From Octopus vulgaris (Eukaryota), in the NCBI GenBank assembly GCA_951406725.2, contig OX597816.1, forward strand, positions 108,066,001-108,130,000: a DNA stretch of 64,000 nt, given 5' to 3'. The notes under the pieces are model-generated. The model made no database searches and was not told where the DNA came from. It saw only the letters and a list, made by a program, of their open reading frames with translations. The translations under genes and the position numbers were made by a program. Of the stretch, positions 2,596 to 60,100 are shown in pieces; position 1 is the first letter of the stretch, and each line of letters starts with the position of its first letter.

Positions 2596-4626
2596 CCAAA
2601 GGCGAATAGCCGTGGACAATAGCAAGTCAAGCCAATTTCCACGTGAGTAAGCAGTCCTTCAGGCTGGTAGTTGTCTACACTCCTAACGAGCGTGGGAAGT
2701 CTGGTTTTTTTTTCGAGACCTGGAGCACTTTCTAGTGACGTCAAAAACGGTAGTTCTAGTTGGGAACTTTAACACTATCCTCGATGCGCAGGTGGATAGT
2801 GTTGGCTCAACTGATAGGAAAGGGAATCCTAGCCTCAAGGGAGACTGGATGAACCGAGCGTACCACAGTGGACGTGGAGTAACAGCGACGGTTCACTCAG
2901 ATCGTACTTAGATAGGATATTCGTTAGTTAAAGAGCTAAGGATACTTTTAGTTGTCCACAGTTTCACGTTGTGCCTTACACGGATCACAAATTCGTAACG
3001 TGTGAGGTGCATTTAGATAAATGTCATTGACAGGGACCCAGGTACTGGAAGCTAAACAAGTCTATTTTGACTTGTGAAGACTTTCGTATCCAGATTAAGG
3101 TGTTAATACAGAGGGCATTATGTGACACCACCATTAATAATTCATGGTTCCATGCCCTCAAAAGTGCCATCCGTTTGGAGCCCATTAGATTTAGCAATCA
3201 GCTAAGTTTAGATAGGACTAGAATAGTGGGTGATTTAGTTAAGAACTAAGACGGGGTGATGGAATCTGGCTCTGCATCTAGAATGCTGCCGGCGAGAACG
3301 GTCTTGTACCGTCACCTCAACTCCAAGCACGAAGGTTGCAGAGTTAGAAGCTAAGCTACGTGCGGGGAAACGAGAGGGTGTTAACGTTGCCGGATGGTAC
3401 AGGTGTTTATTGCATCTGTAATCACTTATCGCCTGACCGTTGTCTCTTGCTTCGAATCGTGGTTAAACAAGTTGGAACGGCTCCTTTTCTGTTTTTTTGT
3501 GGAAGGGAGGAAAGCCACTTGTAAGGCTCTCCATTTGCTGCCAGGAACCTTTAAAGGGTGGGCTAGGGATGTCTTGGCTAATGATACGCAGACATGCGTT
3601 GAGGCTGAGATATCTTTGGTGCCACCTGGAAGGAAATAAGGTGCGGAGTCCGCTGGCAGAGGAATTCTTCCCGCGACCGGCCTCTATGGACAGATTTACA
3701 CCCGGGTTCATAAAAAGACGTAATCTGACTGTGTGGCAGAAGGAGTGCTGACAAGCATTCACGTTGATCAACAAGACTGGCAGCGGGAATAACACCTCGG
3801 TGTTCTATAGAGGGTTGGTAGAGGCTAAAAATGATGACGTCCTAGGAGGGGCTCTGGGGTTCGACGAGAACCAACTAACCAAACTGTTTAAAAAGAGTTT
3901 CAGGCCAGAGTATTTGGATAAGTTCCCAAACTCCCTGACCTGGCAGTGCTACAGGAACGCTTTACCTGTTTGCGATAAGTTATCTAGGCACGGAATGTCA
4001 ATGCCACCGATATGTCCAAGATGCGGGCCGGACGATGAAACCGTTCAGCACGCTTTTGTACAATGTCGGGAGTTTGTTAAGCTTGATAAATTATGTAAAA
4101 CACGTATTGTCGCATCTGGGACGAGTACAGTTGTCGGCTGTAAAGATGGTACCGCCAACTGGACTCTCAAACGAAGGTGAGGCAGTTTTTCACTGTACGG
4201 TTGCAGTATTGAAAGAGTGAGTATGGCGGACTAGAATGGAAGGGTCCTTCGTCTCTGGCCCCGGTTTGATAACCTACTTCAGATGTCATCTGAAGAGCAT
4301 GACGGGGTTGGAGAGGAAAACCCTACCGCAGAGCGTGTATGAGAAACGTTAGAAGGATGTGATGAGAAAGGCGGGTGTCAGTAACCCAGCTTAATCATCG
4401 ATGAAGGAAGTAAATATAGTTTCTGGGCCTTACAGGCTGCTGGGTATGTATTCTGAGCTTATTTTATTATATTTCAAAATTTAAAAACAGGATAGTCTAC
4501 AGTCAATTAAATTATATAAATTTATATTAACATTTTTAAGGTTCATTCGAAGTAAGATTAACATTTTTTCTAATTGTTTCGTCCTGTAATATCCCATCTA
4601 TGTAACGATTCAATAATCATAATAAA
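2596..4626 (+). mobile_element. L1/Tx1-clade LINE ORF2 remnant: APE endonuclease plus C-terminal zinc finger, RT core absent
   Basis: EN motifs FRLVVVYTPN, VVLVGNFN, WTWSNSDGSLRSYLDRIFV, YTDHK and GPRYWKLNKSIL. Then WKGGKPLV..CCQEPLKGGLGM and zf-RVT-type CPRCGPDDETVQHAFVQC. AATAAA at 4621. Confidence 0.9.
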
Positions 4627-16258: not shown

Positions 16259-16354
16259 CGTTGTTTTTTTGTTACCTACATTCCACCATTGTTACCTACA
16301 TTCCAACTATGAAGCATTGTATCTTCGGTGGAAACCAGTTCCTTTCTGACTCCT

Positions 16355-16385
16355 CCTTCTGTCGAAGAGTTATGCTCGAAACTTA
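16355..16385 (+). ncRNA. Degenerate hammerhead-like motif (variant core CUGUCGAA)
   Basis: CTGTCGAA-GAG-ttatg-CTC-GAAA-CT-TA, same layout as the copies at 45313, 55418 and 57067. Helix I is lost. Confidence 0.35.
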
Positions 16386-17336
16386 ATACACACTCATTTT
16401 TCCATCTTATACTGAGCATCAACCTGATATAATCCATGCGTACGTCCTTTTGACTTTTGTTGTTTTATTTATATACATACATGTATACATATATACATAC
16501 ATATATATATATATTTGTATATATATTAAGTTATACATACACACGTAGATACACACAAACACACATATAAACGTACGGAAACACATGTACACACATGCTC
16601 ATACATCCACACATACGTAACCGCATATGTCAATCTACTTCTCAATTTCCATAAGTTTTAGTGAATGCATCTTGCGTTATACAAATACACCGTTATGTTT
16701 GAGTGAGAATATTTATCTACCAAGTATTCACTACTTTGCAGCCTCATTCCAGTATTAAATCACAACTTGGTCACCTTCATAATGTATCAGCGAATATAGT
16801 TTCCTCTGCAATATTATTTTATCGACACAGAAGACAAATTTCTTAATTTAAACGAACAACTTCATGAAAGCGTGAGAAATAGTTTGGCTATATCAATTCT
16901 ATAAATATATATATATATATTGTAACTTATAGCTAGCTTTTTTGCAAATATGTGTGCATGCTGAAAAATATTTCTTCATAGGCATGAATACGTTCGTGTG
17001 TTGATTATTTAGTATGTGATGTGTCTGTGTGTCTGTAAATGACACATGTTTTCGTGTGTGTGTTTCATAAGTGTTTACGTGTGCATGTTTCTGACTACAA
17101 GACATGTTACAGTTATTCTTAGGCTAAGGCAATTTTTGTTCCAAACATTATTTTATGTGAATTTTTCGAAAGTAATTACTTCGAAAACCTTGGTGAAGTA
17201 TCTTAATGGTTAAATCTTGTTTTCTTCCCTCTCCTGGCAGCAATTAAATGACTACGTATTGCTGGTCACATTTCTATGCTACTCAGTCACAAGATACATT
17301 TTACCAATGGAGCATAACTGACAATCAATCTGTAGA

Positions 17337-19445: not shown

Positions 19446-20498
19446 TTCTATATTTAAGAGATGAGGATTTATGTGCGTTATTTATATTATTTACATTCGA
19501 CGGATGTTTGTCCTCATCTTGTTTGTTGTTAACACAACGTTTCGGCTGATATAACCTCCAGCCTTCATCAGGTGTCTTGGTGAAATTTCGAATCTGGATT
19601 CTCATTCCTAAGGTATTTTTCAATGTTATTATTGTTGTTGTTGTTGTGTGAATTTTAGGGCTTATAAATCTAATATTTTCCTATCCTTCCTTAATACCGG
19701 TTCCCATATACTGCTCATATCTGCATTTGGTCTGCTTAGGAGGTTGTTGTGTCCTAGCATTTGTGCTGCTTCTTTTAGTTTGCGCATTTTCCAGTGGTGT
19801 TCTCTGTCTATTATTTTAACTTCATCACACAGGGGTAGGTGGTCTCCATTATTTCAACATGATCAGCTACACCCGATTGATCAATATCTCCTCGTGTCAC
19901 AGCTTTGCGATGTTCGTCTACCCTTATTTTGAGGGGGTGGCATGTTTCGCATTTGTATAAACTACCACAGCTGCATGGGATGGAGTACACGCAGTCTTTG
20001 GTCATATTCTCTTCTATTGGTGGTTTTACTCGAAGGAGATATTTGCGAAGTGTTGTATTACTCTTGAATACTGTCCTGATGTCATATGGGCCGCATATCT
20101 TTTGTATCTTTTCAGAGAGGCCTTTCATATAGGGTAGACAGGCTGTGGACAGCTTATTGGCCTAATCCTCTCTCTTCTTCATAATTAGAGTGGATAGTAT
20201 ACTTTTGGGGCAGTTGTTGCTTAACAGATCGGTATTGAGCTTGATCATTTCTTCGTAGTGTGTACTTATATTCTTTGTACGATGTTTTAGGTACTGAGCA
20301 ATCCTTCTCTTTACACTGTATGGATGGTGGGAATTGAAGTTGAAGTATTGTCCAGTAAAGGTCGGCTTGCGGTATACGGATGTCCTGAATCCATACTTTG
20401 TGCATGTTATTAATGCGTCCAGGAATGCCAGCTGATTACCTTTTTTTTTTTTTTTTGATGAGGACAAATATCCGTCGAATGTAAATAATATGAATAAT
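19446..20498 (-). mobile_element. 5'-truncated Penelope-like element (RT thumb, GIY-YIG, pLTR)
   Basis: LAFLDALI..TSVYRKPTFTGQYFNFNSHHP (20162..20467) and CVYSIPCSCGSLYKCETCHPLKIRVDEHRK (19811..20128). Hammerhead in the 3' pLTR and an inverted pLTR tail at the 5' end. Confidence 0.92.
19531..19576 (-). ncRNA. Minimal type I hammerhead ribozyme in PLE pLTR
   Basis: GACAC-CUGAUGAA-GGCUG-gagguuauau-CAGCC-GAAA-CG-UU-GUGUU: helix I GACAC/GUGUU, 5-bp helix II, palindromic ACGU helix III, GUU triplet. Confidence 0.8.
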
Positions 20499-20510
20499 AT
20501 TTCTGTTTAT

Positions 20511-32769: not shown

Positions 32770-35035
32770 CTCCGTGTTTGTTACAATCACATGTGGAGAC
32801 ACACCCAGCGTCCTGGGGCGAGTGAAGGACAAGAAATGTTACAGTTTCACTGAAAGCTTGGGGAGGGGAAGTGGCAGGGGTAGAAGTGAAATATCTTCAT
32901 GCAATACAACACAAATATTTAAATGGATAAAGTATTTCTAAGGATGTGGGCAGTACTTGTCAGCAAAATCTTTTAGATTTCTTTGACATGGTTCACCTGG
33001 GATCTTATCTAGATGTTTCTGACGTCCCTTTTTTTATAATACCTAGAGCACCCACAATAACAGAAACAGTTCTCGCTTTAAGATGCCACATCTTTTGTAT
33101 TTCAATTTCCAGGTCCTTATATTTACTTAATTTGTCAAATTATTTTACAGATATATTTTTATCAGTGGGAACACATACATCTATTAGTCTACAAGTGTTT
33201 TTTTTCGATGTCTCTAATAATTATGTCTGGTCGATTAACTTTGACTGTTCTGTCAATGTTGACTGGAAAATCCCAGAGGATAGTGACATTTTTATCTCCA
33301 ACGACTGGCTCAGGTTGACGTTCATACCAGTATGCAAGAGTGCTGATTTTTTAGTGTTTACATATTTCCCAATGTAAATACTGTCCTATCCTATCGTGGC
33401 GATTTTTGTGTTCGTTTCGAGTCATCCCGAGATGAGATGGTCTATTGTATTGTCAAAAGTATTGCAGAATATGCATTTGGTGTCAGAACCGTTTTGAAGT
33501 ACGTTAGCCTGGTAGTTTTTAGTAATCAAGCTTTTGGTTTTGTGCCACCATTATGAAACCTCTAGTCTTTGCTTTCAGTCCCGAACTTCTCAACCATTGA
33601 TGAGTTGTTGCTTGCTCTACATCGGTATTTAGACTTCGAAGTGTATATTGTCAATGCAGAGGCTTCTGGCCCCACCGCTCCTCAGTTTGTTTCTTCCCGT
33701 TCTTTTCTGCAGCTTGCTTGATCCGTTTCGCTTGTTGTTTTGTGGCAGTGGTTTCCAGTTCTTCAAATATTTCAGTGTTAATGCCAAGTTCCCTTGCCAA
33801 TTTGCAAGCTTCCTTGACAATAGAATATGATTTCTTGCCGCTTTCGTGTTTGCAGAAGAGCTGCAGCGTCCAGTCCTCTGTACTAGATAAGTACCTGTTC
33901 ACTGCTATTGGGGAGGTCTTATAGTACAGTTCTACCTGCATCATTCCTCTTCTCTCATTATTTATAGGTAGGTACAGACGATCAAGGTCTCATTTTGGGC
34001 GGTGCTTGTTCTTAGATGTTAGCAGTTTTCTTGTCTTTGATTGCAGGCGTTGGAGCTCTGTAAGATTCTACTTAATGATGTTAAAACTATATTGGACTAC
34101 TGGAAGTGTCAGGGTGTTATGGCGCCAATGCGATTTTTCCTATAATACTCCTTTCTTATTTTTCCTTCATTGTAGCATGTTGTATACCATCTCCTTCGTT
34201 TATCCCCAGGTATTTGTAATTTCCTTGTCAGTCAAGCAACTTGATGGTTGAGTCGGTATCTAATTTATTGGAAGCTGTTTGCCTCAGCTTGCCGCTTACA
34301 AAAGTTGCTTCAGCACACTTATCAAGGCCAAAATCCATACCGATGTCATTACTGAATTCCTTAACAGCTGTTATCAGCCCGGCTAGCTCTTCGTCATTTC
34401 TAGCAAACAGCTTCCGATCGTCCAAATTAAATAGATGGTTTATTGTCGTATTACAAACTTTGAACCCATACCTGTTCTTATTTAGTTCGTTTGAGAGTGG
34501 GATCAGTGCCATGCAAAAAAGTAATGGGGAGAGGGATTAACCTTAAAAGATACCTCCTTTGATGTTCGTGTTCTTAGATTGGTTCATCCCATTACTATGG
34601 TTTAGAAGGAGCCATGTCTTCCACTTGGCCATGATACCTTGTAAGAATTTGAAGACGACAGGAGAGATCTTTTATATCAAGCGTTTTGAGTAGCCAACTA
34701 TGTGGGACACTATCAAATGCTTTCCTGTAGTGCATCCATGCTATACTCTGGTTATTTTTACTCCGGCACTTCTCTACAGTCATTTTACTTATGAGTAATT
34801 GACCTTTGCACGCATACGAATTCCTTTTACAGCTTTTTTGAACTTGTGAAAAGATAGACTTCTGTCAAGGAAAGTGTATATTCTGTCAGTTAATATGGAT
34901 GCGAGGATCTTGTAGGTGGTGTCAAGATATGTCGCTAGACCTTTGGATTTTTTTGTGTTTTCATTTTTTGGTAGTAGCTATGTTGTTCCTTCAGTCAGCC
35001 AGGAACGTATTTGCTCTGGATTCTGGATGACATCC
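32770..35035 (-). mobile_element. R4/Dong-like LINE: RT, CCHC and RLE, decayed
   Basis: AWMHYRKAFDSVPHSW, INHLFNLDDRKLFA..DIGMDFGLDKCA, KCIFCNTFDNTIDHLISG and an RLE ending in VGALG..STAHILR. The 3' end adjoins (TAA)n at 32711-32758. Confidence 0.9.
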
Positions 35036-45264: not shown

Positions 45265-45267
<3 letters not shown>

Positions 45268-45438
45268 CACTAAACTTTTTTCTATTTTCTCTCCCTGTTT
45301 ATTTCTGTGTTCCTTTCTGTCGAAGAGCAAAGGCTCGAAACGTGAAAGTATTTCTCATTTCCCGAGCGTTTAACTAATACATTTGTTTGTTCTTTACACA
45401 CCCGTCTTCATCTTTTGTTTTTATGGGGGAGGAAATTC

Positions 45439-45443
<5 letters not shown>
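45265..45443 (+). mobile_element. ~180-bp (TA)n-flanked element with hammerhead-like motif (45313-45348)
   Basis: CTTT-CTGTCGAA-GAGC-aaag-GCTC-GAAA-CG-TG-AAAG. Body homologous to the copies at 55372 and 57021. Confidence 0.75.
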
Positions 45444-45481
<38 letters not shown>

Positions 45482-45588
45482 GTGTGTATGTATGTATGTA
45501 TGTATGTATGTATGTATGTATGCATGCATGTATGCATGTATGTATATATGTACGTACATATGTGTATACGTATGAATATAGGTAAGTG

Positions 45589-45620
<32 letters not shown>

Positions 45621-45640
45621 TGTATCTATCTATCTATCTA

Positions 45641-45679
<39 letters not shown>

Positions 45680-46985
45680 GTCTATGAGAAAAACAGCACA
45701 CATATGTATACGTAATATAGACAACATTGTGCAAATTTTCACCTAAAAGGAAAACTATTATTGTAACTAAATATGACTAGGGTATTAGAAACACCTACAT
45801 TACAAGAAATCAGAGCTAAAATGCTCTAATTCTGTAGTCAAAGCACATAATTGTATACAAATATACAAATAAATATATATACGCTTGCATACATGTATGT
45901 GTACTTTAATTCTCTCTTGCTACCTCTCTCTTTTCCTCAATATATGTTTACATAATGGTATTTAACATACAAGTGAATGTATGTGCGTGTAAGGATGTAT
46001 ATATGTGAATCTGTATATGTATATATATATGTATGTATATATATATATATGTATGTATGTATGAATGTATGTATGTATGTATGTGTGTATTGTATGTATG
46101 TATGTATGTATGTATGTAAGTGTGTATGTATGTGTGTATGTGTACATGTGTGGGTGTGCTTTGTACATGTGTCTGGATGTGTGTGTAAGTGTGTGTGTGC
46201 GCGCTAGTGTGTGTATAACTTTCCCGTGATTGGTTTTCTTATAATATATTATACAGTATATCATCAATAATATAGTCTTATGATAAGTGTGAAAATAGTG
46301 TAGTCTCGATAATTACTAATACCTTACTCAAGACGGTCTAGTGGTAGCGCCATTAAGCGTATGTATATGCGTGTATAAGTATTCATGTATACACGTATAT
46401 ATACGTACTTGTGTTTTAGGATGTTCATTGTTGCTTAAAACCTACACTTCCGTATCCATTTTTTAAATATTTACACAGACAAATAAGTCATTGGAAAACA
46501 TGTTAGAAACCTACGAATAGACATAATATATTTGTTCAATAAGAATCAACCTATATCAATATATTTTGCCATGCTTTCCTGGCCGGAAAAACATCGTTAA
46601 TAAACACCGATAGCACTAATTATAACTAATATCCTTATATTTACCTCACAGCCTTATAAGACCTACAACTGTAACAATATGTTTCAGAGTTTATTTGGTA
46701 ATGGGCCAAACTAATCCACCGTAACGAACAACCTTCTTTGGATTTGGATAGACTTTTCCTCAAATAACAGTCTAATTTAGTGTTAGCTAGACTGGTTTCT
46801 GAAATCTTGGTTTTAGCATCAATTATAGAGTGAGAACATAGACGACATGCACCTCATCCTCACCCCAACCCCTTCGTCACTCCAAACTCCCCCACACTTA
46901 CCCCTCCTCTCCCTTCTCCCAGCCATCCACTATCCTCAATACCCTTCTCACATCTGACCCATCCACCCCTCCGCACTTCAGTCAG

Positions 46986-47180
46986 TTGGTAGCATTCCTC
47001 TTGATAGGGGGTCTGCGCTTCATCCCCCTCACTCCATCCAGTAACGAATTTCAGACTCGTACTGATATTCATAACCTTGTGCGTCATGTCAGGCTATATG
47101 CACTATTACACAACATCCCGCCTGTAGCTAATGAAGAGGACTGCTTCACCGACCTTGACCAACGACCATCCCACTGGACA
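46986..47180 (+). mobile_element. Penelope-like ORF N-terminal fragment
   Basis: LLIGGLRFIPLTPSSNEFQTRTDIHNLVRHVRLYA..DCFTDL..SHWT resembles the PLE L.KGL.F+P..NEF..D..F.RR+RL..SWTP region. Confidence 0.6.
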
Positions 47181-47231
47181 CTGTGTATGTTATTTTTTCC
47201 CATGCCGGCCACTTGATAAGATCGATATTAT

Positions 47232-47295
<64 letters not shown>

Positions 47296-47411
47296 ATCCA
47301 CCAGACTATCGTATGTTGTTATACATCACTCGTCACAATGCGGTTTGCTTCGTTTTAGCTTTGATGCAACAGTCTCTGTCAATTTCACTCTCATATAATG
47401 TAAGTATATAC

Positions 47412-47465
<54 letters not shown>

Positions 47466-48145
47466 GCGCGCATGTATATGTATGGCTTTCGATAATTAAA
47501 GAGAGATAACTCTAAACATTTGTTGTTTTTTCTTTTATAGTGAGCGATTCCGCGAAGTAAAACGTCTATGTGTAGAAATAGTTTGTATCAAGTAAATATT
47601 TAGATTTCTCACTTTAGGGAAATATATTTGCTTAGAAAATAATCAATTCACTAGCGCCAGCTGCATGATTAACAGTAACTGCTCAAGTATTAACATTTAC
47701 AATGCAAAACACATTAAAAGGATAACTAGAACTAAATGTGAGAAGAAAAGCTACACAAGACTTGGCCCAATGGTAACAATACATTTTTTTTTTTTTGATG
47801 GCGAAGCACTTTAACTCTCGTTATTTAATTCTATTTTGATTAAAGTGCGTATATTTTGATACACTAATTCAAAGTTGTAAGTAACGGTTGCTTTCTAAAA
47901 TTGGTAGGTAATTCTTTTCCTTCCAATGCCGAATTCAATCTCTGCTAAAATGACTAGTGGAAGGTTAACTGCGACAGAATAGAGTTTTATCTAGGTAACT
48001 GTAAACCGCATATTCTTTTAATGCAACGGAAGTTCGACAGGTCAATGTTAAAGAAAATTTTATGTACATACACACATATATACATACGTACATATATTTA
48101 TGCCTTGTACATACATAAATACATACACACACACACACGCACACA

Positions 48146-48234
<89 letters not shown>

Positions 48235-48289
48235 CATATTCGTATTTGGTTTGCAAGATTCTTGATGTGAATTCGTGTATTGAAAGAAA

Positions 48290-48653
48290 TACTATTGAAC
48301 CTTGGGAGGGGCATTATGCAGGTAATAATAAACGCAAGTACTTTATTGTTATTGTTAGTTAATTGGTTAGTTACTCCGTTAAAACTTTATCGATCAGCTG
48401 TTTTTTACTAGTTTTTCAAACTCATATGTTAAACACTTTGGTCAAACAGTTAATCGTTCAAGTGTTAATTGTTCGTGTTGTCATTTTTTTTTACAGCATG
48501 AACAATGCTAAACATTTGAATGATGAAAAAACGGTTGATCGATACATTTTTAACGGAGTAACTAACCCATTAACTAACAATAACAATAAAGGACCGAACC
48601 AGTGAGTGTGTTTATCATTACCGGCATAAAGCCCCTCCCAAGGTTCAATAGTA
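48290..48653. mobile_element. Long-TIR MITE with TA ends
   Basis: TACTATTGAACCTTGGGAGGGGC / GCCCCTCCCAAGGTTCAATAGTA. Complementarity extends more than 100 bp inward. Confidence 0.88.
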
Positions 48654-48659
48654 TATATA

Positions 48660-48917
48660 TATTTCGTTTTGGGATTTGGTTTGCAAGATTCTTCATATGA
48701 GTTCGTGTGTTGAAGCATATTCTGTTGTGTCTGGGGAGAGTCATTTTCTTTTTGTGCCTTATAATTTAACACACTCACCGCTAAAATTTCCACTTATTTC
48801 TTATTTTTATTTTCCTAGAATTTTTGTTGCGTCTTGCAAACTTTTCAAGACCATTGAAAAGGTTGCAAGACTCAACGAAAATTTTAGGAAATTTTAGAAA
48901 ATAAGAAATAAGTGGAA
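48660..48917. mobile_element. Second copy of the 18281-18587 foldback MITE, right arm truncated
   Basis: Near-identical left arm and central ttgcaa.cttttcaa/ttgaaaaggttgcaa palindrome. Confidence 0.85.
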
Positions 48918-49539
48918 GGTATTTCCTCTGTCGCTTAATGGCGCTACCACTAGACCGTCTTGAGTAAGGTATTAGTAATTATCGAGACTACACTATTTTC
49001 ACACTTATCATAAGACTATATTATTGATGATATACTGTATAATATATTATAAGAAAACCAATCACGGGAAAGTTATACACACACAGGCGCGCACACACAC
49101 ACTTACACACACATCCAGACACATGCACAAAGCACACCCACACATGTACACATACATTCATATCATTCACACCGATACATACATACACATGCACACCTAT
49201 TGTACAAACGTTGCTTGAAAAAGATATAACTCATCAGATTCGCAAGCAGACCTTCAATTAACATAGTACAAATTTGACTCATTTTCAATCCTGCTTTTCC
49301 CTGTCTAAACCTAAAGCATAAAAATGTAAATACCTTTCTTACACTGCTTCACTTATTATATCGCGGTTTCGAGACCCAACATCAAACATTTCCTCGAATT
49401 TTATTTTTCTCAGAACCGTACACGTCTGAACTTTTATTACAACCCACTCCCAATTTGTTTACGTCCAAGCTGCTACAATTTAAATCGAACATTAAAAACA
49501 CTATTGATACCCAGACATCGTTACGTTGTAATCTACGAG

Positions 49540-49960
49540 TATTTAAAAACTTATAATGACAAGCTATCCTCTTCAAACGCAGCATAAAAAGTTTTAAGCC
49601 AATCGCATGTGGCATTTATCAATTTCGTCTTAACGAAGTTCGTGCTAGTTAAAAGAGTTGTAAAACATCAATTTAACTCCTATTGCTCTCTGTAATCTCT
49701 ATATAGTCTCTGTCACTGAACTAATTCCAGTTTTCTTTTTGGTAGTGATTTGACATCTCATAAAATACCTCAATTAGATTATTTTTTTTTATACAACCTC
49801 GAGTGAAAGATATTTTGAAACTTTACTCGTAATACTGTTTCTGCTTCTATTGAGAAGTTTTTCTGTGCTGGAATGTATTATCATTCTTTCAGTCAAATGC
49901 CAACTACGCTGCTTCACTTGGCAACTATCCAAACCACCATGTTTTACTGTAACGGCAACT
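49540..49960 (-). mobile_element. Possible decayed CR1-type LINE 3' region
   Basis: Frameshifted pieces resembling VW.P...YE.RL..FTLE...LIEVF. Confidence 0.4.
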
Positions 49961-51389
49961 TCTCCCTAACCTCAAAACAAAGCACTGTGTTTTTCAACTA
50001 TGTTGGTTTGTTACTATTTATAGTGTCGTTACTCAAGTGAGCAGTTTTTTTGCGTAATTGCTTAGCCCTTAGTCATTGCTAACTAAGCTGACCTTGATTA
50101 AGACCAAAGGGAGATCTAGATATGAATATACTGTTTTTTGGTTTGTATTTTAGCAGGTATCTGTTAAAGATCTTTACATTCTTAATCAAAATTCCACCTC
50201 AATGACCAGCTTCCTCATGATGTGTTTCGAGATAATCGCGATCCGACTACGCTGTTAAGACTCCACTGTTAAACACAACAATTTATTGATTGTTAAATAG
50301 TATCTCAATTGAATGGGTCTCAAAAATTGAATGGATCCTATCCTAAAATGGGAACAAACAAACAGACAGAAAAATTAACTTTCTCGAAATCATACGGATT
50401 ACAACTTGTATTACTCTCATTGTCTCCATATCGAAAAGCAAGTAAAGAAGCTAGAATTTCCTCTACAAGCATTCCTAATGTATTCCTATTAAAAATTACT
50501 GTCTTCTTATCTAAGGTAATGCATCATAGTTTTCAATTTTAACATGATAGACTACATTTCGTGGGAAACTTTTCAAACAATCGGGAAATTCCCATTAGTT
50601 CACTATCTGTGTACTTTGTTTCAGCGCTTTCCTTCTCGTTCTTTCAACTTTGCTGCTATATAAAACATCTCCTTTGAAGTTACCGATTATATCATAACTT
50701 CACTGAAAGAGAACAACCAGAACTTAATTTAAGAAGTGAATATCCTCCTGGCGTTTGATAATTGAACATGTGGTAAAAACAGCAACCAAACCTTACTCAA
50801 ATGACATCAGAATTTCAAAATGGGTTGCATACAATTGGATAATGTAGTCTTCCTGCTTTAATGGTATTTAAGAATTTACTTGACAATTCATTCTGCTCCT
50901 TTTTTCAAAGAAATAGAGTGTGATTTGAGGGATAGCTCTCTGCTTTTTCGAGCAGATCATCTGTCTGCATAGACGATCTGTCGTTGGATTATATGGGTGA
51001 AATCGCTATAGGTAGTGTGAGTTGATTCAGTTTTATACAAAGAAACTATTTGATTGAAACTTGTGTTCATAATAACACCATTATCGCTGCATTCGATATA
51101 TTTTAAACATTATCTCTGGATTTCCTCCTAGAGTATGTTTCAATTTCTGACTTATTCAGTTAATAAAACATCCATGAATAGTTATGTACATTTCTGTGGA
51201 GAATATTAACGATCTTTAATATAAAATAAACATGAACTTAATAGATTTTTATTTATAAATACACATGCATATATAATAATGTTTTTAAAATTAAACAATC
51301 AAAATTACATAACTGACAAGGTGTCTCTGAAGTAAAAGTATAGTATTATTATTCATGGAATAATAGTTGCAATGAAAGAAGATATAACA

Positions 51390-51622
51390 ATATTTGTTTC
51401 AAATCTTGACACAAGACCAGAAATTTTGTAAGTGGGGATAAGTCGATTTCATTGGCGTCAGTGTTCAACTTGCACTTATTTTATCCACTCCGAAAGGATG
51501 AAAGGCAGATTTTGAACTGAGAATTTGAACTCAGCAGAATTTGAACTGAGAACGTATAGTCGAATAAAATGCCGTTAAGCATTTTGTCCGGTGTGCTAAC
51601 AGTACTGCTACTTCGTCATCTT
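51390..51622 (-). mobile_element. SINE family A (minus strand)
   Basis: cgaaaggatgaaaggca, gaatttgaactgagaacgta and aagcattttgtccggtgtgctaac are the reverse complement of family A. Confidence 0.82.
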
Positions 51623-51652
51623 ACAATATCATTTAATATTGCGGAAACGTAA

Positions 51653-51844
51653 GGCGGCGAACTGGTAGAATCGTTAGCATGCCGGGCAAAATGCATAGCG
51701 GCATTCGTCTGACTTTACCATCTGAGTCGACTTTGCTGTTCATCATTTCCGGGTCGATAAAATAAGTAATGGTAGAAACTGGAGCCGATGTAATCGACTT
51801 AACCATCCCTTGAAATTGCTGGCCTTGAGCCAAAATTTGAAACC
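51653..51844 (+). mobile_element. SINE family A with ~18-bp imperfect TSD
   Basis: Head ggcggcgaactggtagaatcgttagc. Flanks aatattgcggaaacgtaa / aatattgaggaaacataa. Confidence 0.88.
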
Positions 51845-52549
51845 AATATTGAGGAAACATAAAATGCTATCATGTCAATAAAAAAAAAATTCTATTATTA
51901 GCTAATAATTAAATTTATTTATCCTAAGATGTATTCAACATGTACTTTTATCATACTATCACAATAGGAGGAAATCTTTAACATTTTTCATCATAAACGA
52001 GCATTGAACATTTTATATATATATATATATACACGCGTGTGTGTGTGTGTTTGTACTTGTGTATATCTTATATACAGTGGAATAGGAATAAACATTTCTC
52101 GTGTAAAATTAAACAATTAAACGCTTAATATCACATGCGTTTCTAATCAATAGAGTAAGTTTCATGCATGACTGTATATTATGATATAAATCAATTCACT
52201 TTTTACTTTTTACTTTATGAAAGCCAAAACTAAAACAAAAAATCCATTATGCTGTTTTAAATACTCTGGGGGATAAATATTTTATAATTGTCGTAAAATT
52301 AACAGATAATTTACTAAGCGTAAAACATTAATTCATAGATTAGGCGTCACAAACATTTTAGCTTTCCGTTAACAAAATAACGAGTAAAATCTATTACAAT
52401 TAATTAGACCAAATGATTTACAAAATAATATTTTATTATTAATTACCCAAAGGAATAAACGACAGATTTTCCCTTTTCTTTTCAAAAATGCATACTGTCG
52501 CACAGGAATGTAGTTACGATTCTATCTATCTTATCTATCTCTTCCACTC

Positions 52550-52596
<47 letters not shown>

Positions 52597-53001
52597 TTAA
52601 CATGTATATACACGGATATATTTGCATACACAAACAAATTTTATACTCACATTATGTGTAATAATTTAATTACTTAGCATTTTAGCGTTCAATTCACAAC
52701 GTAAGGTGAGATATAAGGGTATATTGATACTTATATATATATATGAAAATTACAATAAATAGATAAATATCTATTAGCTTGACTATGGAAAAATCCTAAT
52801 CGAAAAGATGGAAAATAAACTTACTATATCATTACAATAATGCTTCCAAACATACGTTGATGTAATACTTGATTTTTACACCTTATCCATTATACCATTA
52901 TACCACTACAAAGGATTGTATTTGAACACTGACATCTTGATAACTGTGTTTATATTTATGTATGTGTGTGTGTTTATGTGTGTGAGCTTGTGTGTGAGTA
53001 T

Positions 53002-53069
<68 letters not shown>

Positions 53070-54236
53070 CGTAAACACAGGTATACATATATACATATGT
53101 TCGTAAACACAGGTATACTTACACTAGTAAATTTTTATATTTACAAAAACGTACGAAGCCAAAAACACATATAATATAATTTCATTACGAAACTTCAGTT
53201 GAAGATTTTTATTATCGAAGTAATAAAACTGGTTTCTATAACTATGTAGATGTAAATTTTATACATGAAAGTGGAAGTTACAAATGTCTTGCTAATTTCT
53301 TGAATATTGAAGTTTTTGTAGCCTCACTATGCATTTCAAAGGTTTATAGATCAATATTAGAGTTCTAATAGACATATATACTATGAAAAATTAATTAGAC
53401 TATGAAATAAATGAGGTTCAAACTTAACAGCCACTTGGTTTCAGTTCCGGTCTTGCTGCGCAACACCTAGGGCAAGTGTCCTCCATTATAACTCCGAGTC
53501 GTCGAATGTTTTATGAGTGAATTTTTAGATAGATTTTTAGAAAGATATATTCAGTTGCAACTATTAGTGTCAGCCTTTGGTTTCGAAAATAATACACCTT
53601 TAAATGCTGCTTCCTGATGCCGCATCCTAAGATCTCCGACTTCTGTCTACTTTGACGACTGCAAAAGGCCATGGGTACTTCGAATACTCTGTTTTTCTTC
53701 TGTAATTGCAAAGAAATTAAACAGAACGCTTCATTACATATTACAATATTGTGAGCAGAAGTTCTGTCCAGTGAGAGGAATATGCGCCTAGTTTTTACTA
53801 AAAGTAGACTATCTAATAATTATCTGTGTTACAAAATGACATACATTTACTCTGTCTTTTCTAATTCTTTCCTTTACGCACATAAAAAAATAAGAATTTA
53901 ATCATCTTCCTACAAGCAAAAACTACAAACTTGCTGAATCTAGGCGGAAAAAAATGTCGAAAATTTATTGAATTCATATTTTCTCTCTGAATTAGTTGTT
54001 TGGTTAGAATTTTTGCTTAGAATAATCTTTTGTATTATAATTCGTGTCAAAGTAAATATCTTTGTATTGTTTCTTTTGTTAGCTTTCTTCAATAGCGTCA
54101 GCCTAGAGTACGTTTCCTTTGGACTTATTCTTCTAATCTTACACAATTAATACATAAACAAACTCTTAGACAGGTGCAAAAATGAAGGTAAGTATGTATA
54201 TGCGTGTGCGTATGTATATATATATGTATTACGAGC

Positions 54237-54277
<41 letters not shown>

Positions 54278-54381
54278 TATGTATATGTGTATATATATGT
54301 ATATATATATATATATACATATATTCATATATATATGTGTATATATATGTATATATATATATTTATATATATAGACGTACA

Positions 54382-54795
54382 GGCGCAGGAGTGGCTGTGT
54401 GGTAAGTAGCTTGTTTACCAACCACATGGTTCTGGGTTCAGTCTCACTGTGTGGCACCTTGGGCAAGTGTATTCTACTATAGTCTCGGGCCGACCAAAGC
54501 CTTGTGAATGGATTTGGTAGACGGAAACTGAAAGAAGCCCGTCGTATATATGTATATATATATGTTTGTGTGTGTGTTTGTGTGTCTGTATTTTCCCCCT
54601 AGCATTGCTTGACAACCGATGCTGGTGTGTTTATGTCCCCGTCACTTAGCGGTTCGGCAAAAAGAGACCGATAGAATAAGTACTGGGCTTACAAAGAATA
54701 AGTCCCGGGGTCGAGTTGCTCGATTAAAGGCGGTGCTCCAGCATGGCCGCAGTCAAATGACTGAAACAAGTAAAAGAGTAAAAGAGTAAAGAGTA
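54382..54795 (+). mobile_element. tRNA-derived SINE family B, full length (~410 bp)
   Basis: A box TGGCTGTGTGG, B box GGTTCAGTCTC, internal (TA/TG)n and an (AAAGAGT)n tail. Resembles published octopus tRNA-SINEs; family name not verified. Confidence 0.92.
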
Positions 54796-54841
54796 CATAT
54801 GTATGCATATATACATACATACGTATATATAAACATACGTG

Positions 54842-54878
<37 letters not shown>

Positions 54879-54879
54879 G

Positions 54880-54939
<60 letters not shown>

Positions 54940-55371
54940 TGTTTGCTTGCGTGTGTGTGTGTGTATGTATGTGTTGGTATATGCATGTGTGTGGGCCTGT
55001 GTGCATTCCGGAAGTACTTTCATACAGTATGGTTCCACTTTTACAACAAGGATAGTGAGCAAAAGAAAAATACCAAATGTAAGATATTTGCCACGCTAAC
55101 AAGTTACAATTAACTACTAGCATATTCCAGAACTCCTCTGCAATTGCTATATTCCGGAAAAATTTCTTTCTTGCAATTTTGCAGACGTCCCATGAAAACG
55201 CTTCTGGTGTATCCAACATATTCTATATATTCGTTGTTTTTGTTGTAGTTTACCTAAAGAACAGTGTCCATATTAACTTTAAAGAATTCCGTAACACACG
55301 GAAATATTGCTTATGATCATAAGAATTGATATGATAACATATACATATATAATTATATATGTATGTGTGTA

Positions 55372-55491
55372 TAGCCACTATACACATTTATTTCTCTCCT
55401 TGTTTTTTTCTGTGTCCCTTTCTGTAGAAGAGCGTAACCTCGAAACGTAAAAGACGTTTTCTGTTCCTAGCGTTATACTAATACATCTGTT

Positions 55492-55497
<6 letters not shown>
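55372..55497 (+). mobile_element. Short element with hammerhead-like motif (55418-55453), 3'-truncated at (TA)n
   Basis: CTTT-CTGTAGAA-GAG-cgtaac-CTC-GAAA-CG-TA-AAAG. Confidence 0.75.
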
Positions 55498-55553
<56 letters not shown>

Positions 55554-55559
55554 CTGTCT

Positions 55560-55841
55560 TTTAGAAAAACATAAATTCGGAGTAAAAGCACCCTCTAAGA
55601 AGTAGAATAGTCTATATTTATTACTGGTGAAGACCGGTTTAATGAGCTACCCTGGGTTTCTCGCCATGGCGGATGCCTTTATGGCGTATCTTCAGACCCC
55701 AAGCTCTGTTGGCCTATGACCTCTTTAAAATGTGGAGGGGAAAACGATACGGTTGTGAACAAGGAGATCATCTCCCTTTTCTGCTGGCTATCGGCTTCGG
55801 ACGGTGTCGCCATCTTTCAGCTATGAGGGTAAACAATAGAG

Positions 55842-55886
<45 letters not shown>

Positions 55887-56245
55887 CCAATCAACTTCTG
55901 GCTGTGGTGTTATTTTCGCTATTACCGCTATTATGCGGTTCCCAACACGCCAGCAGAAATCTTCTAAAATGCAAGCAAGGCCCGAACATTTCTATTCTGG
56001 AGTTCAGTATGGTCCTTGATATGTGCGAGTTTTTCAGAATTTCCATGCGTTCAGTTATACATAGCTTGCAGCTTTTCGTCCCATTGATAGAGGGACCCGG
56101 GCGCTCGAGGATTTTCCATGAGATCGAGTGTGGAATTCCATCTTCCTTTAGTTGCCAGACATGGCTGGCCTGCGATGTAACGTATCTCCTTTCCGGGACC
56201 CTGAAGGAGGATCTTTAGTTGGAAACACGTTACATCACCATAGAT
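55560..56245 (-). mobile_element. Penelope-like element 3' end: GIY-YIG C-terminus plus pLTR
   Basis: Minus strand RSSFRVPERRYVTSQASHVWQLKEDGIPHSISWKILERPGPSINGTKSCKLCITERMEIL..LNSRIEMFGPCLHFRRFLL, a PLE endonuclease CxxC/CxH tail. Confidence 0.8.
55644..55699 (-). ncRNA. Type I hammerhead ribozyme with canonical core
   Basis: GGGU-CUGAAGA-UA-CGCCAU-aaaGGCauccGCC-AUGGCG-A-GAAA-CCC-a-GGG-UA-GCUC. GUA triplet and near-palindromic helix III. Confidence 0.78.
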
Positions 56246-56280
56246 CGTCATCGGTTACCTGTTTAAAGGTTTGATAGAAG

Positions 56281-56492
56281 TATGCATAATAATTTGGCTA
56301 GACTGAATGGTATGTTGGTTCGTGTGTGCATAGGGTGGTGTTATGTAAAGAGGAGGCATTGTTATGAGTCAATGGGTTTAAAGTACATATCAGTTTCCAA
56401 TAGCGAATTTATTTTTCTTATTAGAATGTCTAAGATGGGGAGATTATCGTTGCTGAATTCTATGGTGAATTGAATGTGTGGATTTATGTTTT
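56281..56492 (-). mobile_element. Penelope-like RT thumb fragment
   Basis: KNINPHIQFTIEFSNDNLPILDILI..LETDMYFKPIDS*Q..HHPMHTRTNIPFSLA. Confidence 0.85.
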
Positions 56493-57020
56493 TATAAGCT
56501 TTTGGATTTTTTTACAGCTCCAGAACTTTGTCTCTAACAAGTGAAACACCAAATATTGAATATTTTGTATTAAGGAATTAAGGAATACGCAATAACCGCA
56601 AAGTCAACCAACGATATATGATATTCGCACAAGGCATAGTCCGACCGGTATGTTTAAACTTATATTCTTTAATACACAGATCACGCCTTTGCATCCACAC
56701 ACACAATAAGAATTACATACATAGACTCATTCAAACAAACATACATGTGTATGCCACAGATTTGTGTAGCTGTGTATTTTTCTGTTGGTTCATCACACAT
56801 TTCATGTGAATCGTTGAATTTACATTTTACAGTTAACATTTCCGAAAACAAATATGTAACTAGTATTTTCCAAATCGATTGTTAAATGTTGATTGAATGG
56901 ACAAGTAGACTAAAATGAAGTCATTGTCTTTATTTATAACAATGAATGATTAAGAAATATATCCAGATTATAAGCAAATATATTAACACGTTTTATAAAA
57001 TTCGGATATTCTCATATCGG

Positions 57021-57196
57021 TAGCCACTACACACATTTTTTTCTCTCCTTGTTTTATTCTGTGTCCCTCTCTGTAGAAGAGCGTAGGCTCGAAACGTAAA
57101 AGACTTTTTTCAATTCCTGAGCGTTATACTAATACATCTGTTTATTTTGTATATCACCTGTCTTCGTCTTTTGTTTTTTTCGTGAACTCTCCCCTG
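57021..57196 (+). mobile_element. Short element with hammerhead-like motif (57067-57102)
   Basis: CTCT-CTGTAGAA-GAGC-gtag-GCTC-GAAA-CG-TA-AAAG. Ends at (TA)n. Homologous to the copies at 45265 and 55372. Confidence 0.78.
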
Positions 57197-60100
57197 TATA
57201 TATATATAATTTCCCTTCATTTTGGCTTAATCAGTGTCAAATTTCAGATTTGGTTATGTAGTACAATCATGCCATGTATTCTTTCATGTGTATTCATTTT
57301 GTTTTTCCCACATTTAATTCTCACCTCATCTCATTATTCATTGTTTTTAACTCCATTCTATTGTAACTGACTCTGACTGTCTGTACAATGTTAATGCAAA
57401 TATTTACTAGTGGAAGATATACATTTCTAACTTTCTTTCACTGTAAGTAAACATTACCAGCCATTGGAAAATAGTATTTATTTATTGTTTTACCTCTAGA
57501 TTAAGTAAATACAGTATTTATTCAATATATAAGTTAGATATTTCTAATCTACTTGATAGGACATTTTGTCATTCTTTCCTTTATATAAATGTATGCGTTT
57601 CAGTGTGTTTAAGTAGAATCCTTTTTTATTACAGTTGTCCTATTTCGTTATTAGTCCCATATGTTTTGTTGGAACAAAAATATTCCTAAATACGTTAATT
57701 TAATAGTGCTCAAGACCTTTTCGGTCTCATCATTAGATTGAAGTGATGTAAACGTTAGCTGATTGTTTACCTGAGCTGCCGTACGTTCTAAAGTCTCATA
57801 GGAATACTATCATAATTGATAAAGTCATCAACGTCGAATATAAAAATTACACAAAGCTTAAGTGTTGCTGTTTATAGCTTTGTTATAGCTTTATTTTTCT
57901 ATTTTAGGTTTTGTTTTGCTATTAGAAATACTCATTATTTATTCTGTTTTGTGAAGTTGTAGTACTGACAATTAAGGTACTGTATTATAATGAAGTGAGG
58001 AAACACCTTTTTTGTAAATGCATGTTTAACCAACAAGAGATTGTTATAGTCGTGAGAATATATTACAAAATCATCAGAATGTAAGACCTAATGTTAATCC
58101 CAATTTAAAATAGAATGTTCACGAAATAACAAACGAGTATAAACTGTAGAATATATTTTAAACAGCTAATGTAATAGATAAAAGTCAAGGAAAATATGTA
58201 TGCTGTAAACTCCATGACTCAAGTTCCTACATCGAACTTACAAGTGTAACATCTCGTCTGTTGACCAGATATTTACAGCAAAGAGTCTTTCCAGATCATT
58301 ATAATACAACCAAATAGACGAAAAAGTTCGTTAGAACATTGTTTCCTATCTCCAGGAGTGCGATCCAAAGTTGTGTTACCAAGATTTTTCAATGATTCAC
58401 AAAGTAATTTTTGAAAGTATTATTTTTGTTCGAAAGTGTAAAATAATTTCCAAATGTGTTACTGTTATACAAGATATACATGGCTACTTACATTCAGTGT
58501 CACAAAGATATTTGATACATACTAAAAATGTATTTACTCTCTGAATTTTCCCAGACCAATGAACAGGAAACTGTAGTTAAAAGAATTACCAAACTACGAA
58601 TGAGTAGACTCATACTTAACTTTTTTTCCCAGTAACATACATTGTTGTTGGTTATTTCTTGTATGCAAAAGAACCTGCGTTCTTTAAATTTAAATATCTA
58701 AAGAAAAATCTATTTACAAAATGACAGAAAATAACTTTTATTATGAAAGAAATGAAAGCCAGCCTTATATATATTTATTCCATCTCCGGAATATACAGAC
58801 ATTCATACACATACATATTCATGTGCGTGTGTGTATGTGTATCAGTGTGTGTATCTGTGTGTGTGTGCTTGTGTGTGATTTATTTGGCAATATTTTGACA
58901 AGAAATTGGCTTATACAAAGTTAATTTAACAACCCTGCTGTTACATCCTTCCTAATCTCAAAGTAGAAATTGAATTCTGGAAGAATCAGACTACTTAGGC
59001 CTATTTCAGAATTTTTTACAAATATATCACTATTTTATATTTTCTTTATGCCATTTGGCTGTTCTATAATTATATGTAGCTGTCAGTTGATATAATCCCT
59101 AATGTCAGAGCAGGAATACAAACCCAAAATTTTAGAATTGGGATTTACATTTATTACCACAGAATAGTCAAATCGCAATTACTAATATTGTTTGAAGTGT
59201 CAAGCAAAGAATCACTGAAGTACATGGAACTATCAAGCACGAAAAGGAAAAATATTTTAGCAATAGAAAAAGTTTGTATTTGAAAACAAAACACTGCTTA
59301 AGGACTGGATGGTCCAAACAATAATACTATGCTAACAGGAAAATTCTGATAGATAAGTTTATTGATATTCGTGATAATTGTTTTGTTAAATTAAACATTT
59401 CAACTATATTTATGATTTAAGTTTCTGGTTAAAGTAGTTTACATATTAACACGTAAGTTACATTATGTTGAAGACATTAATATCTTCGATTTAATATCTT
59501 CCATCACTAAGATTGCTTAATGCATAACGTTTTAACACACATATATGGGTAGTAGGAAAAAGCAGGATAATTTTTATAGAATTTTTTATGCAAAGGAAAA
59601 AACAGTATTTTTTAGCAAAATCAAACAAATCTATATATACATTTTATTTGGAGGAGATGGGGTAATCGTCTTAAAATAATAATCTGCTGTAGATCATTAT
59701 TCGTAGAGTTTAAGAACCATTACTTTCTAAAATCTGAGCTTCTTGATTTACATTTTAGTGTCTTCTCTTATATATATGTGTGTTTGTATGTATGTATGAC
59801 ATATAGAGATAGTTAATTATAGTGCAACTGTGCTGAGAAAAATGCTAAGTGATTTAATAGACATGTTAAGCTCTTGCTGACTTCTTGGAGAATATCAAAT
59901 CAATTAGGGAAACGGCTGGCATCTTGATAGCTTTCTCTATTAATTTGAAATAATTTAATTTTAATTTAATGTTAGAACTTGTTTCCCACAGCTATTAATT
60001 TCCTATGCGATGCTTTTTAGTAGTACTCAACAAATATTTAGTAGTGTATTTGCTGTAGAAATGAAATTAATTATCACTATTTTGTGTGTGTTTACAGAAG

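Follow-up and report, generated by a model that had tools for sequence, protein, structure and literature searches.

The window analysed here is a stretch of 64,000 nucleotides of Octopus vulgaris (assembly GCA_951406725.2, contig OX597816.1, positions 108,066,001 to 108,130,000 of the forward strand; coordinates are counted from its first letter). It holds three short copies of a repeat with a hammerhead motif whose core has U instead of A at position 6 (U6 instead of A6), which we read as pseudo-long terminal repeats (pLTRs) of a Penelope-like element (PLE). The core CTGT(A/C)GAAGAG is matched without mismatch at 16359, 45317, 55422, and 57071, and in all four cores position 6 is U and A9 is followed by an extra A, both as an earlier note on this DNA had claimed. 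With at most one mismatch there are 8 window matches against 2.42 expected, and none of 100 shuffles attains 8. Homology of the copies at 45265, 55372, and 57021 spans about 130–180 bp and all three are bounded by (TA)n, at or near the end, again in agreement with that note. An Rfam scan of the window (E ≤5) gave no hammerhead family among the best 150 of 222 rows; nearly all rows listed are microRNA models on simple repeats.

The first copy (45265..45443, plus strand) appears to be a solo 3' pLTR of a Neptune-like PLE, belongs to an older group with C at N7, and lies between (TA)n runs; its U6 core starts at 45317, within a minimal-hammerhead block of 36 nt (45313..45348, plus strand) made up of helix I, CUGUCGA, the extra A, helix II, GAAA, ACGU, and helix I. 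Its loop II is mutated and its position 17 is G, giving the triplet GUG, which falls outside the NUH rule. The second (55372..55498, plus strand; core from 55422) and third (57016..57197, plus strand; core from 57071) are solo pLTRs of the subfamily with A at N7, 89% and 90% (193 nt) identical, respectively, to the element at locus L121; the second is ended early on its 3' side by a (TA)n run, and the third is full to the TA junction and bears the downstream motifs YGAGCG and ACTAATACA. Identity of the window copies to L121 is 80–90% overall. The cleavage triplet GUA, reported earlier for two copies, belongs to cores 55422 and 57071. The type I helices, described as kept in every copy, are not all intact: helix I of core 57071 is CUCU/AAAG (mismatched), helix II of core 55422 has one C.C mismatch private to that copy, and core 16359 lacks both helix I and the ACGU palindrome. 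This last core lies in the 3' end (16340..16470, plus strand) of family E, which is distinct from the U6 family though related to it, and whose consensus core is the canonical CUGACGA. Among the 24 best other genomic matches to the copy at 16355, position 6 is A in 21 (one of them read by eye), C in 1, and U in none (2 unparsed); its U6 is thus a private mutation or decay within an A6 family, and it drops out as a fourth U6 relative. An isolated fragment of the N-terminal part of the U6 element's open reading frame (ORF) lies at 46876..47180 (plus strand), 1.4 kb downstream from the copy at 45265 and possibly a separate insertion; it is 64% identical to long copies in amino acids and 74–76% in nucleotides.

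The autonomous PLE bearing this pLTR, which the earlier note had proposed to look for, was located by walking 5' from the short copies, which have a fixed 3' end at the TA junction and variable 5' ends; a 459-nt query met an unrelated repeat, and a narrowed query reached the parent. Full elements of about 4.2–4.5 kb consist of a pLTR, a short TA junction, a 5' untranslated region (UTR) of about 0.8 kb, a single ORF followed by a 3' UTR rich in pyrimidines, and another pLTR, which ends in (TA)n. The U6 motif is present in both pLTRs of elements coding for a reverse transcriptase (RT) and a GIY-YIG endonuclease at L121, L126, L181, and L188, each with two direct pLTRs (96–99% identical within the four pairs, ungapped columns), which bears out the suspected PLE-type minimal hammerhead and its linkage to a PLE. 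At L171 the upstream pLTR is inverted. The L171 frame is open and runs through an N-terminal region, RT (DKG, LPKIHK, YIDD), a CX4CxxC linker (CSRPRCRTC), and a GIY-YIG end with CCHH residues (CCHH and DKG read by eye); Pfam gives RVT_1 at E 1.3e-7 and GIY-YIG at E 0.007, below its cut-off. Both the RVT_1 and the GIY-YIG families are present among 120 listed homologues, the closest at 55–59% identity, and young copies are 92–97% identical to L171 over the main alignments. An endonuclease query yielded 17,167 candidates, 150 of which were scored. A PLE RT fragment at L052 was dropped, its identity to the parent being only 28%.

Insertion sites were viewed in a positional sample of 90 copies, the first 90 matches along contig C1, at one chromosome end, to a motif situated 25 nt downstream from the site of cleavage. 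A TA-type run follows within 130 nt in 80 of the 90, a raw figure from a TA-rich genome; in most rows the run directly abuts the element end. Judged from its sequence, the element is an autonomous PLE with Neptune-type domains that inserts into (TA)n. The clade is assigned by motifs alone, the 120 homologues listed including no named PLE reference, and Nematis may be an alternative; the Neptune fit, and the exclusion of Hydra and Naiad, follow because linker, DKG, and CCHH agree with the criteria of PMC8557442, in which Hydra PLEs have DKT and no CCHH. The copies at 45265, 55372, and 57021 are accordingly interpreted as solo 3' pLTRs of this element, not retrozymes. The proposal of a separate non-autonomous or retrozyme-like family finds no support: the motif is the pLTR of the four elements named above, and a second core within 400 nt occurs in 0 of the 90 copies. 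That the copies encode nothing is true of the short ones and untrue of the family, whose long members have the RT-GIY-YIG ORF. Four loci (L094, L096, L103, and L134) are internally deleted, with the 5' UTR and ORF start joined straight to the 3' pLTR, which suggests template switching. Separately, one joint in the 5' UTR, from run contigs, is without GT-AG ends. The A6 families B and E yielded no ORF.

Genome counts refer to the 2.80-Gb assembly in 227 contigs. The exact U6 core pattern has 11,867 plus-strand and 11,864 minus-strand matches, 23,731 in all (control 1), and the family is abundant, as had been supposed; the A6 version has 3,568 and 3,471, together 7,039 (control 0), mostly with other loops, that is, from other families, among the matches listed. 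In this genome, at least 23,731 such motifs escape descriptors built on CUGANGA. The downstream motif has 23,889 genomic matches, and 49 of the 90 sampled copies also match the exact core, from which a rough two-sample estimate gives about 44,000 copies. The U6 element is the most abundant among the related lineages counted.

U at position 6 marks the lineage throughout. Among 30 endonuclease loci, 23 have the motif downstream (U6 in 22, C6 in 1, A6 in 0), and the U6 core is found at 20 of 20 long-ORF loci. In the positional sample 77 of 90 cores were parsed, 75 being U6 and 2 A6, one of the latter in a neighbouring element of the A6 lineage. With the GUAG loop fixed, 645 copies genome-wide have a base other than U at position 6; in the first 100 a hand count gave C 72, A 19, and G 9. 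This spectrum fits mutation, to judge by base composition, and A occurs across all N7 states. CUGAU copies with the GUAG loop were tried as an A6 sister family and dropped, their relatives being mostly U6 and the base spectrum mutational; a small A6 subgroup is possible, because A is twice as frequent as G among the non-U bases. Even the old subfamily D (copies 71–86% alike to the query) has U6 with the endonuclease upstream. U6 is thus the lineage consensus, common to all seven subfamilies examined, and for the copies at 45265, 55372, and 57021 the canonical A6 consensus with merely decayed members, which the earlier note had named as the outcome that would overturn it, was not found. The U6 pattern has 0 matches in metagenome contigs. 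In contigs of four coded organisms the pLTR is present and summed depth is several-fold higher over the core; the core variants listed there, an incomplete set from which the common N7=A is missing, concern N7 and position 17 only.

Hand-made motif rules gave seven U6 subfamilies (121 copies) and two A6 groups (41 copies), with 22 of 184 copies unassigned. Across the U6 subfamily majorities, 2 of 36 columns vary in the hammerhead block versus 59 of 125 in the flanks (Fisher p 1.4e-6, for columns that are not independent). One of the two is N7, where all four bases occur, and the other is position 17, limited to A and U; these are the positions that hammerheads leave free. C3/G8, G12, and A15.1/U16.1 are unchanged throughout, and all seven majorities have the extra nucleotide after A9, G10.1-C11.1, GAAA, the palindromic helix III, and an NUH triplet. 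The CUGANGA box is the feature that fails, being CUGUNGA across the U6 lineage. Subfamilies A and T differ by 0.222 at synonymous sites. Because synonymous sites have diverged by 22%, 34 invariant sites are unexpected (P about 2e-4 at the synonymous neutral rate) and argue for selection on the motif; with seven sites plausibly free to change, the probability that both variable ones belong to these is 0.03. Within the block, CpG sites rank with those most often mutated in copies, yet they are unchanged in masters. Fixed ORF differences between subfamilies have a ratio of non-synonymous to synonymous change (dN/dS) of 0.08–0.18, at a proportion of synonymous differences (pS) of at most 0.222, and private changes a dN/dS of 0.48–0.65. 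The stem covariation that had been proposed as a check was found across lineages, where all three helices covary (21 copies of U6, A6, and outgroup; pairing in 93% of cells, two-sided changes in 8 of 10 pairs, 17–42% for slid controls), but not within the U6 lineage, where the pairs are invariant. Mean distance from the subfamily majority ranges from 0.04 to 0.19, which would correspond, roughly and conditional on an octopus calibration via PMC13282606, to tens of millions of years.

About 20 nt past the cleavage site a further motif, UU(U)CC-YGAGC (window 57118-57124), is conserved in all lineages. It is complementary to GCUCG-AAA, the helix II 3' strand plus GAAA box, and the alternative helix is predicted to block the hammerhead fold. 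Two metagenome loci, L297 and L311, have UUUCGA right after the cleavage site, complementary to UCGAAA, with a similar predicted blocking hairpin.

In a tree of the linker and endonuclease (26 rows of 27 tried; L297 left out for low coverage, L201 labelled from its flanks, its core being deleted), the 16 rows with U6 group together (98/98), and their sister is an A6 family from this genome. That sister family has a CUGAAGA core and an endonuclease of its own, 52–59% identical to L171. At 80 related metagenome loci a relaxed descriptor gave 14 hammerhead matches, about 4 of them not downstream of the matched ORF: 11 CUGA, 2 CCGA, and 1 UUGA, all A6 and none U6. These comparisons indicate that U6 is derived from A6 and has a single origin. 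An A6 sister lineage (L396-L425, L022, L006; 14,181 matches to its downstream motif) has CCGA, that is U4C, in 16 of 26 parsed cores from 30 copies sampled; no ORF was found for the CCGA group. This lineage independently acquired U4C, a second weakening of the same turn; U4C is reported to be weak in vitro and sufficient in a viroid (PMC3088659).

As to what the altered core does, we consider most probable, at about 0.55, that A6U has weakened a hammerhead that is probably dimer- or protein-assisted and is under selection. A weak but real ribozyme is favoured because C3, G8, G12, and U16.1 are kept and position 17 is restricted to A/U. Cleavage would be slow and would take place only as a dimer via the ACGU palindrome, probably with the element protein, and for these reasons a slower core would be tolerated or favoured. 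A natural A6C hammerhead cleaves at <0.1 per min (PMC3088659), and the Anolis PLE hammerhead cleaves only with protein and is dispensable for in vitro insertion, in which RT starts internally (PMC11167929).

Several points weigh against a weakened ribozyme. In a pairwise mutant scan, every change of the CUGA turn apart from the C3/G8 swap gave low activity, with no rescue in any case (PMC9901934). Pairing of U4-G5-U6 with A15.1-C15.2-G16.2 is predicted to close the core, with P 0.44–0.96 in 6 of 10 U6 copies and ≤0.06 when A is put in. Loop II (GUAG) is invariant, which catalysis alone does not explain. The sequences are assembled contigs, from which cleavage is predicted. U6 by itself is not significantly conserved over this tree length, and helices that are merely invariant within the lineage add no covariation there. 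The subfamilies rest on hand-made rules with 22 of 184 copies left over, and the tree bootstrap has not converged. The 5' edges, on which the transcription start discussed below depends, come from local alignments that may stop early in old subfamilies.

It is possible, if on the whole unlikely, that the hammerhead is instead catalytically dead and kept as a recognition structure, bound by the element protein or a host factor. U6 would zip the uridine turn onto the helix III strand and so form an irregular hairpin (helix I, UGU/ACG, tandem G.A, helix II, GUAG). Such a role is favoured because loop II is invariant and the zip is predicted; the zipped monomer is predicted in subfamilies A, T, and young C, but is weak or absent in those copies of G, old C, and D that were tested, and in the folding predictions U does not consistently make the core costlier to open. 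It would agree with the insertion of the Anolis PLE in vitro, unaffected by core mutants (PMC11167929), with Naiad PLEs that thrive without canonical hammerheads (PMC8557442), and with the independent change of U4 to C in the sister lineage (16/26). Copies starting at the cleavage site, 1 of 90 in the U6 sample, are as scarce as a dead ribozyme would have them; however, 5' ends do not pile up there in 30 copies of the A6 lineage either, as judged by eye, so the scarcity does not separate the readings. Against a dead ribozyme, C3 and U16.1 are mismatched in the zipped form yet never change, and a hammerhead explains both; position 17 is limited to A/U; and no later decay of the core is seen across a synonymous distance >0.2. 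If the motif is non-catalytic after all, it would be a natural transition from ribozyme to recognition signal in tens of thousands of copies; PLE hammerheads would then be kept for a role other than cutting, and the motif would be frozen because its shape is needed.

The origin of the short copies is a separate matter. Their 5' edges fall at 61–90 nt upstream of C3 in 43 of 90 copies and in the next 60 nt upstream in 2, while about 15 copies extend well beyond; the upstream pLTR of L126 begins at -86, and in full elements a short TA stretch closes the upstream pLTR ahead of the 5' UTR. Going by these edges alone, transcription would start within the upstream pLTR, about 60–90 nt before the core. 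The endonuclease would nick (TA)n DNA and RT would prime at a UA-rich junction of an uncleaved RNA template: priming at the 5' pLTR junction would yield solo copies of about 200 bp with a common 5' edge, and priming at the transcript 3' end longer, 5'-truncated copies. For the RT of the Anolis PLE, an internal start close to the pLTR junction and the use of uncleaved RNA are described (PMC11167929). A pLTR-internal start with priming at the internal TA stretch is the simplest way to obtain solo pLTRs without a separate short interspersed element (SINE).

That the short copies form a non-autonomous SINE- or retrozyme-like family with its own short masters, mobilised by PLE enzymes in trans, we regard as doubtful; it would be compatible with any reading of the core. 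The sharp 5' edge and the majority of short copies would suit it, and no ORF-linked copy turned up for the G and old C groups, for which no specific search was made. On the other side, in subfamilies A, T, young C, and D the short copies share their diagnostic bases with ORF-linked copies, and the upstream pLTR of the full element L126 starts at the same edge. Tandem copies, which the earlier note had proposed to look for, are absent from the 90 sampled copies and present at 2 of 30 best-match loci, where short tandem arrays speak for short masters. These arrays (L009:1500-2100 and L021:1500-2100) are head-to-tail pLTRs, at L009 with a period of about 226 bp and a trace of 5' UTR 'tail' between units. 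As to circular RNA, the joints listed for the run contigs include no back-joint, though contigs cannot prove its absence.

Returning to the core, it would be surprising if U6 were a new and fully active variant, rescued by a protein or by an unrecognised tertiary contact of loop II with the upstream UGUG or the downstream YGAGCG. Loop II and YGAGCG are strictly conserved and tertiary contacts have been proposed to compensate variant cores (PMC3088659); but no double mutant rescued the CUGA turn (PMC9901934), canonical-core minimal hammerheads of PLEs are already slow (PMC4209133), and YGAGC is predicted to pair with the helix II 3' strand, in opposition to the active fold. Decay of a canonical A6 family, which holds for the 16355 copy, can practically be dismissed for those at 45265, 55372, and 57021, given 23,731 U6 against 7,039 A6 matches, the latter mostly of other families, and near-intact young elements that carry U6.

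The window contains other mobile elements too. At 55586-56560 (minus strand; frame 55891-56214), not listed in the earlier note, lies the 3' end of a PLE distinct from the U6 element, with the tail of its RT and the C-terminus of its GIY-YIG domain; the hammerhead-like motif after it, at 55644-55706 (minus strand), combines a CUGAAGA core, which is canonical, with a long helix II and a palindrome of 9 nt as helix III. A further PLE has left decayed frames with an RT tail and a GIY-YIG-like part at 19811-20506 (minus strand), without a Pfam match, which we take by their motifs to be Poseidon-like. Non-LTR retrotransposon fragments lie at 3752-4180 (plus strand) and 33651-34536 (minus strand), with zf-RVT at E 1e-9 and RVT_1 at E 2e-5.

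Hammerheads of PLEs are poor at cleavage in vitro, dispensable for insertion in the one reconstituted system, and missing from Naiads. The U6 lineage is a natural experiment on their role, in which a change of the uridine turn that by mutagenesis should take away most of the activity has been fixed and the rest of the motif is under selection. No description of an A6U hammerhead was found in the literature searched, which left out Repbase and the survey of PLE hammerhead variants by Lunse et al. (2017); passages of PMC6765202, PMC11014351, and PMC3376415 contain nothing on A6U, and supplementary file 2 of PMC4209133 has neither a CUGU core nor an Octopus entry.

Among known systems, the minimal type I hammerheads in the pLTRs of metazoan PLEs (Cervera and De la Pena 2014, PMC4209133) share with the present motif the pLTR position, the U-rich 5' flank, the short helix I, the extra nucleotide between 9 and 10.1, G10.1-C11.1, GAAA, a palindromic helix III that requires a dimer, and the prevalence of solo motifs from truncated elements; the extra A and the palindromic helix III are thus already published PLE features. 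Their consensus is CUGANGAH and the core change described there is U3-A8, whereas here A6 is changed to U lineage-wide. Neptune-clade PLEs (Craig et al. 2021, PMC8557442) are alike in the single ORF, RT with DKG, CX2-5CxxC linker, C-terminal GIY-YIG with CCHH, pLTRs (with an inverted upstream pLTR in one copy here), and microsatellite targeting; the element here differs in its non-canonical hammerhead core, and its clade is given by motifs only. A natural substitution at position 6 is known from phage Bcep176, whose A6C hammerhead (Perreault et al. 2011, PMC3088659) has C in one sequence with a measured rate of <0.1 per min, whereas here U is found in tens of thousands of copies known from sequence alone. 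The Anolis Poseidon element PAc (Frangieh et al. 2024, PMC11167929) likewise has a pLTR hammerhead, AT-rich targets, and a junction of pLTR and 5' region that could serve internal RT initiation; it differs in its clade, in an ORF that begins within the hammerhead (in the U6 element it lies about 0.9 kb downstream), and in cleavage that was obtained with protein. Non-LTR retrozymes (PMC7229834; bioRxiv 10.64898/2026.07.22.740005), finally, are short units that code for nothing, carry a type I hammerhead, and are related to PLE pLTRs, but they form tandem arrays with canonical cores, whereas the copies described here are dispersed monomers of an autonomous coding element with a non-canonical core.

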